IMG/VR virus record: IMGVR_UViG_2563366964_000004
Length of the DNA stretch: 6,806 nt
From: a virus
Taxonomy: Duplodnaviria; Heunggongvirae; Uroviricota; Caudoviricetes
Direction: 5' to 3' (one strand)
Positions within the stretch are counted from its first letter, which is position 1, and every line of letters begins with the position of its first letter. Below, piece by piece: positions 2,333 to 6,806 of this stretch. The notes under the pieces were generated by a model. That model ran no database searches. It had not been told where the DNA came from and saw only the letters and a program-made list of their open reading frames with translations. A program made the translations under genes and the position numbers.

Positions 2333-3226
2333 ATGTCAGCTAAAAATGAACTTGTCGAACTGATGAAAGCAAAAGGTCTTAACCAGACGCAGGTCGCCCG
2401 CGCTATTGGTAAGAGCTCTGCCGTAATCAGCCAGTACCTGAATAATAAATACGACGGCGATATTGCATCGCTGGAAAACGATATTCGTAGCTTTATCGAT
2501 CGTCAGCATGAAAAAGAGCGCTCGGCACGTATCAGCGTCAAATTTGTTGATACCCCAACAACGCGCAAAGCCGTTGATGTTATACGCATGGCGCACGTCG
2601 AAGGTGATATCAACGTGCTTTACGGCGAAGCCGGTCTGGGCAAGACGATGATTTGCAAAGCCTACGTCTCTAAATACCGGGATGCGTTGCTGATTGAGGC
2701 CGACCCTGGCTACACCGCACGCGTAATCCTGGAAGAACTCTGCAACCTGCTGGGGCTCAGTACCCGCGGCAATATGCATGAACTTAGCGAAGCCTGCATC
2801 AACAAGCTGCGCGACTCTGGGCGCGTGCTGATTATTGATGAAGCTGAGAACCTCCCTCTGCGTGCGCTGGAATCTATCCGCCGCATTCATGACAAAACGG
2901 GGATCGGCATCGTCCTGGTTGGTATGCCTCGCCTGATTCTGAACCTCAAGGGCAAACGCGGTGAGCTCGTACAGCTCTATAGCCGTGTCGGTTTCGCCCT
3001 CAACCTCGGGCATAGCCTGCCGGGTGCTGATATTGACGTCATCGCCAGCAGCGTTCTCCCGGATGGCCTGAATGAAGACCTGAGCAAAGCGCTGTTCAAC
3101 GCATCAAAAGGTAATGCCCGCCGACTGTTCAAGCTACTGCGCGGTGCAGTTCGTACCAGTGCAATGAATGATGTTCCGGTCAGCGGTCATATCGTCAATC
3201 AGATAGCCGAAATGCTGATCCATTAA
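2333..3226 (+). CDS. B: Mu-type transposition ATPase / target DNA activator (MuB-like AAA+), 297 aa
   Basis: RBS GAGGAAG before ATG 2333. N-terminal HTH-like segment (LNQTQVARAIGKSSAVISQYLNNKYDGD, compare MuB FINDKYNGD). Walker A GEAGLGKT (about nt 2624-2647) and Walker B VLIIDEAENL (about nt 2825-2854). Size and position immediately after A match MuB. Confidence 0.9.
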   Translation: MSAKNELVELMKAKGLNQTQVARAIGKSSAVISQYLNNKYDGDIASLENDIRSFIDRQHEKERSARISVKFVDTPTTRKAVDVIRMAHVEGDINVLYGEAGLGKTMICKAYVSKYRDALLIEADPGYTARVILEELCNLLGLSTRGNMHELSEACINKLRDSGRVLIIDEAENLPLRALESIRRIHDKTGIGIVLVGMPRLILNLKGKRGELVQLYSRVGFALNLGHSLPGADIDVIASSVLPDGLNEDLSKALFNASKGNARRLFKLLRGAVRTSAMNDVPVSGHIVNQIAEMLIH

Positions 3227-3537: not shown

Positions 3538-3729
3538 GTGGCAAAAGTCGTAATCAGCATAACCGATGCACCGCGCGGCATCAGTGTGGAGTGCCAGGTT
3601 TTTCCAGATGAAAAAGACAGTGAACTGACCCAGAAGGTCGCAGCCACTGTGGGGTATGGCCTGGCTGGCCATGTTAACGAAAAAATCCGTAATGCAATCC
3701 AGAAAAAGGGGAAGTCCAATGTCCACTGA
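3538..3729 (+). CDS. Hypothetical small protein, 63 aa, GTG start
   Basis: Strong RBS GAAGGAG (3524-3530) 7 nt before GTG 3538. Begins 12 nt after the previous stop and its last 11 nt overlap the next gene's start (ATG 3719), suggesting translational coupling. No family recognised. Confidence 0.5.
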   Translation: MAKVVISITDAPRGISVECQVFPDEKDSELTQKVAATVGYGLAGHVNEKIRNAIQKKGKSNVH

Positions 3730-4369
3730 AAACACCATCAAACAATACACTACCACCCAGGCTCCAGAGGGATACTGGACTGATGCTCGCGGCGTTCTGA
3801 CGCCAGTCAGTCTGATTAAAGAAATCGACCGCGATCGCGACCAGCTCGTTGGCGAACTTGTTGAGCAGGCGATTGTCGTTTCCTCTGCTCTGAGTGAGCT
3901 GAAATCACGCGCCTTTGCTGATATTCAGGCGTTTATCGACCTTTCGGCTGAAAAATACGGGGCCACCAAAGGCGGTAAAAAAGGTAATGTCACGCTCTAC
4001 AGCTTTGATGGCCGTTTCAAAATCCAGCGAGCCATGCAGGACAGAATTGCCCTGGACGAGCGTATACAGACTGCAAAGGCGCTTATTGATACCTGTCTTG
4101 CTGACTGGACAGAAGGTGCCCGCCCGGAGCTGAAGGCGCTGGTCAATGAGGCGTTTGATACTGACAAAGAAGGCAATATCAATACCGGGCGCGTTCTGGC
4201 ACTTCGTCGCCTGGAAATTGATGATGAACGCTGGCAGCAAGCCATGCAGGCAATCGGTGAAGCGGTGCAGGTCGTCGGTAGCCGTTCTTATATCCGCGTG
4301 TATGAACGTGTTGGTGACTCGGATGAATATCGTCCGATTGCTCTCGATATTGCCGGTGCGGGGGTGTGA
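3719..4369 (+). CDS. DUF3164-like Mu-prophage early protein, 216 aa
   Basis: The ORF track gives 3656-4369; I prefer ATG 3719 because GGGGAAG sits 5-8 nt upstream and that start overlaps the preceding gene's stop. Size, acidic composition and position after B match the DUF3164 family proteins common in Mu-like prophages. The family call is from memory, not a search. Confidence 0.6.
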   Translation: MSTENTIKQYTTTQAPEGYWTDARGVLTPVSLIKEIDRDRDQLVGELVEQAIVVSSALSELKSRAFADIQAFIDLSAEKYGATKGGKKGNVTLYSFDGRFKIQRAMQDRIALDERIQTAKALIDTCLADWTEGARPELKALVNEAFDTDKEGNINTGRVLALRRLEIDDERWQQAMQAIGEAVQVVGSRSYIRVYERVGDSDEYRPIALDIAGAGV

Positions 4370-4370
4370 T

Positions 4371-4604
4371 ATGTATGTTCTGGTAGATCGCACCCATGCC
4401 CGTAAACCATGCAGTCCATTTATGTCTTATGCAGTCAGCGCTGTACTTGCTGAGCAAGTTGGCGATTTTCATAACGCTGCAACAGCCTGGAAAACTGCAT
4501 TCAGCCTGGCGAAAACAGAGGTCAATTCTATCTGGGCAATATCGCGAATGGAGTTCTGTCTTCATGCGGCGAATCGTGGTTGGGGGATTCCGAATGAAAG
4601 CTAA
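4371..4604 (+). CDS. Small protein, 77 aa, possible ANR/PerC-like regulator
   Basis: ATG 4371 lies 1 nt after the upstream TGA (4367-4369), with GGGGGTG just upstream. The pattern A..AE..GD...AA.AW..A...A...W...R.EFC resembles small ANR/PerC-type prophage regulators as I remember them. The ORF track's longer 4146 start lies inside the upstream gene and is rejected. Confidence 0.45.
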   Translation: MYVLVDRTHARKPCSPFMSYAVSAVLAEQVGDFHNAATAWKTAFSLAKTEVNSIWAISRMEFCLHAANRGWGIPNES

Positions 4605-4785
4605 AGAGTTCAATCTGCGATACCCGGTTGGCAGCGTCTTTATTTATCAGCCAAATCCGGTTTTACGTGGCGGTAAGGTCGTCAGCACCGTTGACCAGGC
4701 TCGTGACTGCCGCGATGTATCGGTAGTTGAAATAAATCAAGAACCTTATTTCGCCAATATTAAATCGCTGATACCAGCTAGCTGA
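4594..4785 (+). CDS. Hypothetical small protein, 63 aa
   Basis: ATG 4594 preceded by TGGGGGATT, overlapping the previous gene's end (4604) by 11 nt. Product MKAKEFNLRYPVGSVFIYQPNPVLRGGKVV... No family recognised. The track's 4396 start would make most of the ORF overlap the previous gene out of frame, so the internal ATG is preferred. Confidence 0.45.
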   Translation: MKAKEFNLRYPVGSVFIYQPNPVLRGGKVVSTVDQARDCRDVSVVEINQEPYFANIKSLIPAS

Positions 4786-4865
4786 AATAACTTTTAATTA
4801 AACCTGTTTTAAATATGGCGTAAACCCGCCGGGGCTGGCTTACGCCTGAATTAAGGAGTTCTGTA
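4786..4865 (+). promoter_or_regulatory. Intergenic region with AT-rich tract, imperfect hairpin and RBS; candidate internal promoter or RNA structure
   Basis: The only intergenic gap over 50 nt in the window. AT-rich TGAAATAACTTTTAATTAAACCTGTTTTAAATAT (4783-4816), then inverted repeat GGCGTAA (4817-4823) / TTACGCC (4840-4846) around a 16-nt GC-rich loop, then AAGGAG (4852-4857) and ATG 4866. No T-run after the stem, so not a classic intrinsic terminator. Confidence 0.3.
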
Positions 4866-5588
4866 ATGGAAAATAAAGAGAAATATCTCCAGCGTATTAA
4901 AAAACTGCTGGCAATGGCGCGTAATAACTCCAGCGCTGAAGAAGCAGCACTCGCGCTGAGCCGCGCCCAGCGCCTGATGGAAACCCACAAACTGACTGAA
5001 GCCGATGCGGCGATGATGGATATCAACGAGGCATCCACTCAGAAAGCCCCATCACATGCTGAAAAGATGCCTGAATATATGGCGCTACTGGCTCATATGA
5101 TAGCGCTGGCATTCGGGGTTAAGTTCTATACCACCCACGGTCATGAGCGCTGGGATGCTCCAGCAAAACGCACCATCACCTATTACGGACCGGACGAACG
5201 TCCGCAGGTTGCAGCTTATTCCTTCGAGGTTCTTGGCAAGCAGCTGGCGAAGGCCCGTCGTGAATACACCGCCACGTTGCGTAAAAATATCAAACCCGCC
5301 ACCAAGGTGGCTCGTGCCGATACGTTCTGCTCTGCCTGGGTGAATGGTGCCTATGCCGTTATCAGTGACTTTGCCGTCACTGAGGCCGAAGAGACTCTCA
5401 TGGAGAGCTATCGCAGCAAAAAACTGAGTCAGGGCATGAAGAAACTGGAGCCTCGTAAACCGGGAAAAGCCAGCGGCACCGATGATGCAGCTAATCAGGG
5501 TTATCGGGCTGGCCGCAATGCGCAGTTACATCATGCTGTGACGGGGTCTTCAAATGCTGTAGCTCGAATTGAAGGGGGACCTCAATGA
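4866..5588 (+). CDS. DUF2786-like phage protein, 240 aa
   Basis: RBS AAGGAG 8 nt before ATG 4866. The N-terminus KYLQRIKKLLAMARNNSSAEEAALALSRAQRLMETHKL matches the DUF2786 signature as I recall it (K.L.LA....N..EAE.A...AQ.LM). The family is frequent in prophages. Its stop overlaps the next start (ATGA at 5585-5588). Confidence 0.7.
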   Translation: MENKEKYLQRIKKLLAMARNNSSAEEAALALSRAQRLMETHKLTEADAAMMDINEASTQKAPSHAEKMPEYMALLAHMIALAFGVKFYTTHGHERWDAPAKRTITYYGPDERPQVAAYSFEVLGKQLAKARREYTATLRKNIKPATKVARADTFCSAWVNGAYAVISDFAVTEAEETLMESYRSKKLSQGMKKLEPRKPGKASGTDDAANQGYRAGRNAQLHHAVTGSSNAVARIEGGPQ

Positions 5589-6088
5589 GAGATATCACCG
5601 CACTGGCGCAACACCTAAGAGTGTATGCCGAAGAATTCAGTTATCCGGTTCTATCTCCTGATGATTGCAAAACGCTGGTAGATGCGCTGGAAGCAGGACA
5701 ACCACACCACAACGGCCTGATGCAGCTCTCTAATGAACTGGTGATGGCTAAGCAGAGAATCGCAGAACTGGAGTCCGGCACAGCCACCGCGTCGCAGAGC
5801 GATTACTTTGCCTCTCTGGTAGCAATGGCTCGTGTTTCAGCAGAAAAAGCGATGCGGAAGTTCCCTCAGCCGAACTACGTGCTTCTTAAGGTTGCGGAGG
5901 AAGCTGGCGAGGTCGTGCAGGCCGGGGTCCATTACGCAGAGAAACGGATGGAGTGGCAGCAGGTAGAGGGCGAGATTGTCCAGCTGTTGGCAATGCTGAT
6001 TCGCCTGGTGACGGAGGGCGACCAGATTAATGGCATCACTCCTCCGGCCGATGGCATCCAGGTTATCGAAGGGGATAATTATGACTGA
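5585..6088 (+). CDS. Protein with MazG-like (all-alpha NTP pyrophosphohydrolase-like) C-terminal half, 167 aa
   Basis: RBS GGGGGA before ATG 5585. The C-terminal half LLKVAEEAGEVVQAGVHYAEKRMEWQQVEGEIVQLLAMLIRL shows the two acidic helices typical of MazG/HisE-like nucleotide pyrophosphohydrolases (EE.GE ... E.E..LL..L..L). The N-terminal ~90 aa is unassigned. This is a fold-level call from motif only. Confidence 0.55.
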   Translation: MRDITALAQHLRVYAEEFSYPVLSPDDCKTLVDALEAGQPHHNGLMQLSNELVMAKQRIAELESGTATASQSDYFASLVAMARVSAEKAMRKFPQPNYVLLKVAEEAGEVVQAGVHYAEKRMEWQQVEGEIVQLLAMLIRLVTEGDQINGITPPADGIQVIEGDNYD

Positions 6089-6446
6089 ACAACAGCGCAA
6101 GCCGGTGGTATTCATCGCCGGGCCGATGACCGGGTATCAGGATTATAACCGGGCAGAGTTCGACGCCGAGGCTAGTGTCCTGTCCGATCGAGGCTTCACC
6201 GTACTAAATCCGGCGATACTTCCAGATGGCCTTGAGCACCAGCAATATCTGGCAATTACGCTGGCGATGCTGGAGCAGGCTGATTCCGTTTTCCTCCTGG
6301 ATGGATGGGAAAAAAGCCGGGGCGCAATGCAAGAATTTCAGCGTGGCCGTGAGTTAGGTCTGGTATTTATGTTTCAGTCATGGGAGACAGCAACCCTCGC
6401 CATTATGCATAACCGCTACTCTCTTCGGGAGGTGACCAGTGAATAA
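6081..6446 (+). CDS. DUF4406 / nucleoside 2-deoxyribosyltransferase-like (DNPH1-like fold) protein, 121 aa
   Basis: ATG 6081 preceded by GAAGGGGA, overlapping the upstream stop (ATGACTGA). Motifs VVFIAGPMTG, VLNPA and LLDGWEKSRGAMQEF (conserved Glu77 at nt 6309-6311) match the DUF4406 signature and the D-G-x-E-x-S-x-G catalytic pattern of that superfamily. The track's 6030 start lies inside the upstream gene and is rejected. Confidence 0.65.
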   Translation: MTEQQRKPVVFIAGPMTGYQDYNRAEFDAEASVLSDRGFTVLNPAILPDGLEHQQYLAITLAMLEQADSVFLLDGWEKSRGAMQEFQRGRELGLVFMFQSWETATLAIMHNRYSLREVTSE

Positions 6447-6654
6447 TGTTATTGGATGCCAGTTCCTGGACAATGGCAATCGACGCATCTGGCATTTTCG
6501 AAACACCAGCCAGGTTGTTGAATACCCCAAATTACCTCTCCGAATCCGATTCCAGTTTTTTGATGCTCATAACAGGAAAATTCGTGGCAAGGCCGAGCAA
6601 AGTGAAATGAGAAAAGCCATTGACCATTATCGGAAGTTACGGGGGATTAAATAA
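6439..6654 (+). CDS. Hypothetical small basic protein, 71 aa, GTG start
   Basis: Strong SD GGGAGGTG (6427-6434) before GTG 6439, which overlaps the upstream stop (GTGAATAA). Arg/Lys-rich product (…RKIRGKAEQSEMRKAIDHYRKLRGIK), possibly nucleic-acid binding. No family recognised. Confidence 0.45.
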   Translation: MNNVIGCQFLDNGNRRIWHFRNTSQVVEYPKLPLRIRFQFFDAHNRKIRGKAEQSEMRKAIDHYRKLRGIK

Positions 6655-6806
6655 TGGATATCGGCTGGGTTTTAATTCTTATTATTTTTTATTTTCACCT
6701 GGGCTGGTGTTGGGTCAGCGTCCTGGAACGTATTAATCCAGATTACGTCTGGTCACCTCTCAAGCACACCGCTGCACTGCTCCTTTGGCCATTCAGTCTA
6801 ATCCTT
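6654..6806 (+). CDS. Partial CDS (3' end off-window): small hydrophobic, probably membrane protein
   Basis: ATG 6654 overlaps the upstream stop (TAATG). Open to the window end (51 codons) with no stop. Translation MDIGWVLILIIFYFHLGWCWVSVLERINPDYVWSPLKHTAALLLWPFSLIL has two hydrophobic stretches consistent with transmembrane segments. Not in the ORF track, presumably because it is truncated. Confidence 0.35.
   Translation, partial: MDIGWVLILIIFYFHLGWCWVSVLERINPDYVWSPLKHTAALLLWPFSLIL

Follow-up and report, generated by a model that had tools for sequence, protein, structure and literature searches.

A conserved intercistronic hairpin module that marks an accessory-gene slot in the early operon of Mu-family phages

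Introduction

A stretch of viral DNA of 6,806 nucleotides, referred to here as the window, contains an 80-nt spacer (positions 4786-4865) in which an A/T-rich tract is followed by an inverted repeat and then by the ribosome-binding site of the next gene. What might such a spacer be doing inside what looks like an operon? A preliminary description, made from the letters of the window, had suggested an internal promoter, a protein-binding operator, or an RNA stability or processing hairpin. The surrounding genes resemble those of phage Mu, a classic model phage in which the function of the semi-essential early region and the acquisition of accessory genes are poorly understood. The accessory genes of Mu-like phages probably serve host takeover or anti-defence.

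Results

Genomic context of the spacer

All plausible genes of the window lie on the plus strand. They begin with a Ner-like HTH gene (1-228), a MuA-like transposase gene (230-2287) and the gene for a MuB-like AAA protein (2333-3226), followed by two small ORFs and a DUF3164 gene (3719-4369). Next are a 77-aa gene (4371-4604) with a PHROG match to phrog_2227, annotated as an ANR family regulator in E. coli relatives, and a 64-aa conserved small early gene (4591-4785) matching phrog_5591, whose C-terminal coding sequence is homologous across relatives. A mechanical ORF call presents 4396-4785 as one gene of 129 aa; the PHROG matches and public gene calls indicate that these are probably two overlapping genes instead. 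Beyond the spacer lies a DUF2786/DUF7168 gene (4866-5588, phrog_421), the first gene past the junction in the window prophage; in relatives, other ORFs intervene between the spacer element and the DUF2786 gene. It is followed by a 167-aa ORF, a DUF4406 gene (6030-6446) from a nucleoside 2-deoxyribosyltransferase-like PHROG family, and a 71-aa ORF. Public assemblies encoding the identical DUF2786 protein have the same gene calls, and in these GemA and Mor come next. Because the Ner-like, MuA-like, MuB-like, DUF3164, and DUF2786 genes are found together on one strand, the window is recognisable as the early operon of a Mu-like transposable prophage.

The DUF4406 gene, located in this early region, might have a nucleotide-modifying or host-takeover function. 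Past the 71-aa ORF, another ORF starts from ATG 6654 (ATGGATATCGGCTGGGTT...) and runs off the end of the window (6654-6806); its N-terminus is very hydrophobic, and it probably encodes a small membrane protein. A second hairpin, at 2275-2306, spans the transposase TGA (2285-2287) and enters the gap ahead of the MuB-like gene, with perfect 8-bp arms (AGCGGCCT/AGGCCGCT), a 16-nt loop and a predicted energy of about -16 kcal/mol. Relatives have a hairpin at this A/B junction with other, mutually complementary arms (GCGGTCTGA/TCAGAAACCGC, GCAGTCTGA/TCAGACTGC, GCGGTTTGA/TCAAACCGC), some of them followed by T-runs. Possible roles for it are attenuation or the translational coupling of A and B.

The spacer at 4786-4865 had been described as the only intergenic gap. 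It is the largest, at 80 nt, but the refined gene map of the window also has gaps of 45 nt (2288-2332), 20 nt, and 12 nt. The 64-aa gene ends with a TGA stop at 4783-4785, 31 nt ahead of the hairpin. In between lies an A/U-rich tract with 13% GC (4786-4816), which includes TAAATA at 4810-4815 and AAATAT at 4811-4816. The hairpin (4817-4846) has the arms GGCGTAA (4817-4823) and TTACGCC (4840-4846), a perfect 7-bp inverted repeat, and a 16-nt interior (4824-4839; ACCCGCCGGGGCTGGC), 14 of whose 16 nucleotides are G or C and which offers weak inner pairs and an apical C-N-G-G-G motif. The 3' flank (4847-4865) consists of TGAAT, the Shine-Dalgarno sequence AAGGAG (4852-4857) and a short spacer, and the ATG follows at 4866. 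All these features are read on the plus strand, and the covariance-model match used below extends over 4791-4858. Direct reading thus found the tract, the two hexamers, the repeat with its GC-rich loop and the ribosome-binding site just where the preliminary description had placed them, and agreed with it that an intrinsic terminator's T-run is lacking, the plus-strand stem being followed by TGAATTAAGG. A mini-ORF, ATG-GCG-TAA (Met-Ala-stop, 4815-4823), overlaps the 5' arm. Its start position is occupied by ATG or TTG in most family members and by CAG in the commonest E. coli variant, which has no mini-ORF, and therefore the mini-ORF is not an essential part of the element.

Taken alone within the window, the spacer feature amounts to no more than chance, and its significance comes from comparative data only. 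When loops of 3-20 nt are allowed, perfect 7-bp inverted repeats occur 12 times in the window, as against 7.5 +/- 3.3 in shuffled versions. The stem with its inner pairs reaches -15 kcal/mol in the centroid structure, enough for the GC-rich stem-loop of an intrinsic terminator. The fold of the whole 80 nt is not unusual against shuffles (z = -0.28). The predicted probability of the stem in its native context is 0.79 in the window and 0.86 as a family mean. The 30-mer of the hairpin is unique in the window, and no second copy of the element was found there by a search allowing up to 3 mismatches or by either covariance model.

Distribution of the module

We compared positions 4396-5588 of the window with 5426 complete E. 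coli genomes by megablast. The sole matching part was 4807-4907, at 89-100% identity in Mu-like prophages of 49-59 of these genomes, and the coding parts were otherwise without a match. The core, 4808-4851, was found at 91-100% identity in 59 of the 5426 genomes, at 1-4 places in each, and the matches occupy the same intergenic position as the spacer does in the window. Scans of IMG/VR with the 16-nt interior, and separately with the two arms and a free interior, returned dozens of copies, all of the same anatomy: an A/T-rich tract is followed by GGCGTAA, a GC-rich interior of 15-17 nt and TTACGCC, and then by WRAWTC and the Shine-Dalgarno sequence and start codon of an ORF. The distance from the end of the hairpin to the start codon ranges from 13 to 30 nt across the family, with a mode of 18-22. 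In all, about 80 distinct copies were found at the same place in phage genomes of E. coli, Photorhabdus, Mixta, Trabulsiella, Intestinirhabdus, and Klebsiella, and in Mu itself. By this comparison the spacer is identified as one copy of a conserved intercistronic module of about 70 nt, in which an A/U-rich tract leads into a 30-nt hairpin and then into a ribosome-binding site.

The A/T tract has the family consensus ..TTAA.. / AATTAAA / TTTAAAWAT. Upstream of the hairpin in all loci it can be read as three A/T blocks (roughly TAATTTAAAC / ATTTAAAT / TTTTAAAWAT) with a period of 11-12 nt, and it contains TAA stops in several frames. These phased blocks might reflect curvature of the DNA, repeated binding sites for a protein, sites for RNase E or for Hfq/S1, or stops in multiple frames.

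The copy in phage Mu was found with a covariance model built without Mu, at 6339-6409 in the gap between gam and gp11 (37 bits, E = 2e-6). This gap is 98 nt long and reads TTTTAATTAT-GGCGCGA-TACGTCAGGAGATTGC-TCGCGCC-TGAAAC, with the hairpin at 6367-6396. Compared to the window, the Mu stem GGCGCGA/TCGCGCC differs in two pairs, both partners having changed in each (U-A to C-G; A-U to G-C). The module is homologous across Mu and its enterobacterial relatives.

The hairpin-based searches had fixed part of the sequence, and therefore two samples were drawn without using the hairpin. In loci found through the DUF3164 protein, with one genome per species, the module was present in 11 of 11 enterobacterial loci (eight from Photorhabdus, together with Trabulsiella, Mixta, and Intestinirhabdus), 200-450 nt past DUF3164. 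Loci found through MuB were divided by identity: the module was present in about 40 of the 43 loci with at least 49% MuB identity, the exceptions being short contigs, and in none of the 36 loci with 48% or less. No homologous element was found in the distant Mu-like phages searched (MuB up to 48%, DUF3164 up to 65% identity), which were from Alkalimonas, Paludibacterium, Ralstonia, Stenotrophomonas, and gut metagenomes, even with filters off. Serratia and Erwinia loci were incomplete or otherwise organised. The complete genomes of Mu, VW-6B, and Klebsiella phage Kp4852-3 have a single copy each, at a distance of 5.1-6.4 kb from the left end.

Salmonella phage PSP3 (locus L234, 2497-2543; positions 25644-25690 of the record) has a decayed module copy (ATGGCGTAAACCCGCCGGG..TTTTGCC-TAAATTCAGGAGG), in the early operon of this P2/186-like phage and upstream of a DUF2732 gene. 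This suggests that the junction may have been transferred between unrelated temperate phage families.

Our literature search, older Mu papers excepted, turned up no account of the hairpin between gam and gp11 in Mu and no mapping of transcripts there. The module is a conserved cis element of the Mu family, apparently not described before, that marks an accessory-gene slot.

Pairing in the stem

The alignment across related prophages, a check proposed in the preliminary description, found the stem conserved and with covarying positions. When 78 distinct sequences were aligned to the model, every one of the 546 outer-stem cells was paired; 5 of them are G·U wobbles and 2 are compensatory, counts that are inflated by relatedness, since many copies are related by descent, so that the covariation rests on few independent events (about four wobble events and two compensatory lineages). 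The one-sided stem variants are GGTGTAA, TTATGCC, TTACGTC, and TTGCGCC, and each gives a G·U wobble in the plus sense only. The third copy in locus L270 has the stem GGCGCAG/CTGCGCC. In a hand-chosen diverse set (alignment A4), 10 of the 14 pairs were changed on both sides, and none of 500 shuffles and no slid register scored as high. Pairs are thus kept by compensatory and wobble changes in one strand sense, as is expected generically of a structured cis-acting RNA.

Even with so few independent events, this pattern of substitutions clearly points to an outer stem under selection for pairing in the mRNA sense. It argues against a function of the minus strand and against a plain double-stranded DNA palindrome. 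The protein-binding operator of the preliminary description is weakened, since every one-sided change is wobble-compatible, which is not what a plain double-stranded DNA operator would give. An RNA hairpin is also favoured over a single-stranded DNA hairpin, although G·T mismatches are tolerated in the latter too.

The 16-nt interior presents a different picture from the outer stem. It folds no better than shuffled interiors and the inner pairs show only modest covariation, so we did not adopt an extended stem, selection for inner pairing being unproven for the same reason. The sequence of the interior is nevertheless conserved, with a C-N-G-G-G apex and a length fixed at 15-17 nt, and the GGCG/CGCC base of the stem is invariant apart from the G·U wobble variants GGTGTAA, TTATGCC, and TTACGTC. 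Together, the conserved interior and the invariant base hint at sequence-specific recognition, which a simple decay barrier does not need. A CsrA-type GGA loop does not fit the family: GGA occurs in Mu and a few variants and is missing from the major variant.

Tests for known classes of element

A scan for promoter and terminator consensus found no site in the spacer. In the native upstream flanks of 89 family members, the best -35/-10 score was 6.6 of 12, compared to 7.0 in composition-matched shuffles, and its position was scattered across the members. A sigma-70 promoter would be expected to have its hexamers at a spacing of 16-18 bp, above what composition gives and at a conserved position, and the internal promoter put forward previously was not supported by this comparison. 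A -10 element at 4810-4816 would moreover place the transcription start inside the 5' arm, in conflict with the selected full plus-strand hairpin. The intrinsic terminator was rejected, no member of the family having a plus-strand U-run.

Covariance models of Rfam 15 gave no match overlapping 4786-4865, even at E <= 10. Elements of the REP/BIME type were set aside given that copies are confined to Mu-like prophages, in 59 of 5426 E. coli genomes at 1-4 places each. The arms GGCGTAA/TTACGCC do not fit the R''/R' core sites RYYYAAC ... GTTRRRY of integron attC sites, and no integrase of the tyrosine-recombinase kind that adjoins such sites was found among the genes of the window or the neighbouring genes. 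An RNase III processing site of the T7 type needs some 20 bp, or two turns of the helix, of mostly double-stranded RNA, and the helix here, with 7 contiguous pairs and 4-5 weak inner pairs, is too short. The hairpin is also not a likely translation insulator: over 48 non-redundant contexts, the predicted accessibility of the Shine-Dalgarno sequence was 0.49 whether the hairpin was present, shuffled, or deleted. The sequence prerequisites of an RNase E site or decay barrier, in the form of an A/U-rich single strand adjoining a stable stem, are present.

Accessory genes and mosaic junctions

In our survey, 76 copies of the module precede 60 distinct proteins, which fall into 19 unrelated clusters. 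Most of the PHROG phage families to which they belong are of unknown function; among the proteins are small hydrophobic peptides, zinc-ribbon-like proteins and one that resembles a host-nuclease inhibitor. Upstream of the first copy there is always the same conserved small gene (gam in the case of Mu), and upstream of any extra copy there is an accessory ORF, so that (module + ORF) units form arrays; in some loci single ORFs are flanked by two or three copies of the module. The flanks on the left and on the right of the module assort independently.

Similarity between related phages ends at the module in three cases. Between the window and its closest relative, locus L237, with a MuB that is 100% identical, identity is 95% up to 3546, drops to about 68% over the stretch before the hairpin, and recovers to 92.7% from 4813; L237 has an extra cassette of about 850 bp between two module copies. 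Similarity between Mu and SfMu or the Yersinia phages stops about 10 nt past the hairpin. Locus L321 is identical through the stem and diverges right after CGCC, with an 81-aa ORF fused onto the start of DUF2786. These mosaic breakpoints show that the DNA of the module behaves as a junction of cargo ORF exchange. Judged by the predicted genes around it, the module sits at the border between the conserved transposition and replication genes and the exchangeable accessory early ORFs.

Discussion

Interpretation and rival explanations

We tentatively prefer a reading that may well be correct, in which the module would be a plus-strand RNA hairpin acting post-transcriptionally as punctuation, its DNA serving also as a recombination junction for accessory genes. 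The hairpin would form in the untranslated gap of a long polycistronic early transcript, where it might be a barrier to the 3'-to-5' exonucleolytic decay of the upstream message. Alternatively, it might be a protective 5' stem that remains after an RNase E-type endonucleolytic cleavage in the A/U-rich tract. In either role the fates of the core and cargo segments of the mRNA would be uncoupled, and the near-invariant 30-70 bp of DNA would provide homology by which co-resident Mu-like phages could swap, gain, or lose accessory ORFs. For the RNA stability or processing hairpin that had been among the first suggestions, the structure and the strand are thus borne out by the 78 sequences, all paired and with wobble and compensatory changes, while for the precise role we draw on the analogy of intercistronic stabiliser hairpins and of RNase E sites that adjoin stem-loops. 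A simple barrier does not account for the GGCG/CGCC base, for the conservation of the apex or for the phasing of the A/T blocks, and these leave room for a specific binding factor.

One rival explanation is a sequence-specific operator, in which a phage or host protein binds the GGCG...CGCC hairpin as RNA, DNA, or both and controls the next ORF. This is unlikely, if by no means far-fetched: the arms are invariant, the C-N-G-G-G interior is conserved past the needs of pairing, its length is fixed at 15-17 nt, the hairpin lies 13-30 nt ahead of the start codon, and Aca2 and Aca1 proteins are known to bind conserved 5' UTR stem-loops (PMC13551039). Against it, we found no candidate binding protein that co-varies with the module or adjoins it, the flanking genes differing between Mu (gam/gp11) and the window type, and pure double-stranded DNA recognition does not predict that all one-sided changes should be wobble-compatible. 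Similarly, the phasing of the upstream A/T-rich DNA near the helical repeat, the xAxxAT hexamers that end just ahead of GGCG in many members, the moron-like accessory ORFs downstream and the union of promoter and stem-loop in T4-like PeSL motifs (PMC4122927) could all be accommodated by an internal promoter in the A/T tract, activator- or UP-element-dependent, giving independent and perhaps lysogenic expression of the cassette with the hairpin in its 5' UTR. We consider this quite unlikely, as the empty consensus scan and the 89 flanks, scoring like shuffles at inconsistent positions, are joined by the ending AAAACA of the commonest E. coli variant, which lacks the -10 T, and by the incompatibility of a -10 abutting the stem, with its start within the 5' arm, with selection on the full hairpin.

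The breakpoints at the module, the (element + ORF) arrays, the reassorting flanks and the decayed copy in the P2/186-like PSP3 are what a recombination device would leave behind, whether a passive homology patch subject to gene conversion with no role in expression, or an active, integron-like site of site-specific exchange. We give little credence to either form as a full account: a passive patch needs neither strand-specific pairing nor a fixed Shine-Dalgarno distance, and for an active site there is no recombinase gene nearby and no attC core GTTRRRY, and L321 gained its cassette without a second copy. A further reading, by which a conserved Mu-family or host factor would read the module as a plus-strand hairpin and so control together, or actively exchange, all accessory early cassettes at a sequence-specific operator or exchange site, is likewise improbable on what we have. 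Strand-specific pairing would also be expected of a single-stranded DNA hairpin used in replicative transposition, for instance a priming or primosome-loading signal on the lagging-strand template; G·T pairs are tolerated in DNA hairpins, and the single copy lies at a constant distance from the left end. However, duplicated copies track ORF starts with tight spacing to the Shine-Dalgarno sequence and the ATG, and known priming signals are larger, multi-hairpin structures, so this explanation is very improbable. Least credible of all is that the repeat is an antisense terminator of the minus strand or a chance palindrome. Some members do have a short minus-strand T-run past the stem (TGTTTT in E. 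coli copies) and 7-bp inverted repeats are common in the window, but the family does not conserve this T-run, in a minus-strand RNA the wobble variants would turn into A·C mismatches, and chance is excluded because the palindrome is conserved in about 80 copies and several genera.

If the post-transcriptional punctuation that we prefer is no more than a stabiliser hairpin, then what is new is the location of an otherwise ordinary type of element. If instead the module is an operator or exchange site for all early cassettes, transposable phages, Mu included, would contain an integron-like cassette platform. In practical terms, mutation of the module, a defined cis element, at 6367-6396 of Mu offers a way to test segmental mRNA control in the early operon. 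Its covariance model provides a sequence tag by which any prophage of the Mu family can be searched for its variable cargo slot, a help in the mining of accessory genes.

Comparison with known systems

Intercistronic stabiliser hairpins and REP elements are found in polycistronic mRNAs such as that of malE-malF, and A/U-rich RNase E sites adjoin stem-loops. The module resembles these in being a GC-rich hairpin that lacks a U-tract and separates cistrons within a long operon, adjoining an A/U-rich single strand, and in its proposed effect on segmental mRNA stability. REPs, however, are repeats of the host chromosome present in hundreds of copies, whereas the module is confined to Mu-family prophages.

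In integron attC sites, too, conserved outer arms enclose a variable centre to form an imperfect palindrome; these sites delimit single-ORF cassettes in arrays and work as strand-specific folded hairpins. Apart from the lack of an integrase and the misfit of its outer arms to RYYYAAC/GTTRRRY, the module differs in that it precedes the ORF together with a Shine-Dalgarno sequence, and in that cassettes can be gained without a new copy. The operators of Aca1 and Aca2, which are helix-turn-helix proteins, combine an inverted repeat with an encoded 5'-UTR stem-loop in anti-CRISPR operons (PMC13551039). They share with the module a conserved inverted repeat just ahead of the ribosome-binding site of an accessory or anti-defence gene, readable as both DNA and RNA; the module, in contrast, has no helix-turn-helix regulator gene and no promoter, and it lies inside a long operon and not at the start of one.

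The closest analogue in behaviour is the PeSL (promoter-early stem-loop) motif of T4-like phages (Arbiol, Comeau and Krisch 2010, PMC2839356; Comeau et al. 2014, PMC4122927). Both are short conserved intergenic stem-loop motifs ahead of variable, mostly ORFan, early genes in plastic genome regions, and both are repeated around indels and implicated as junctions of modular shuffling, the module being found at boundaries of indels and replacements. In the PeSL an early promoter, with -35/-10 boxes that can be recognised, is joined to a terminator-type stem-loop, and each genome has many of these motifs (PMC4122927), whereas the module has no promoter signal above shuffles, no U-tract and 1-4 copies at one locus, and the phages themselves are unrelated (the transposable Mu family versus T4-like phages). 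The module is not a member of the PeSL class, because the defining promoter and terminator parts are absent. It would be a second, independent case, after the PeSLs of T4-like phages, of conserved intergenic motifs that organise modular gene exchange in phages.
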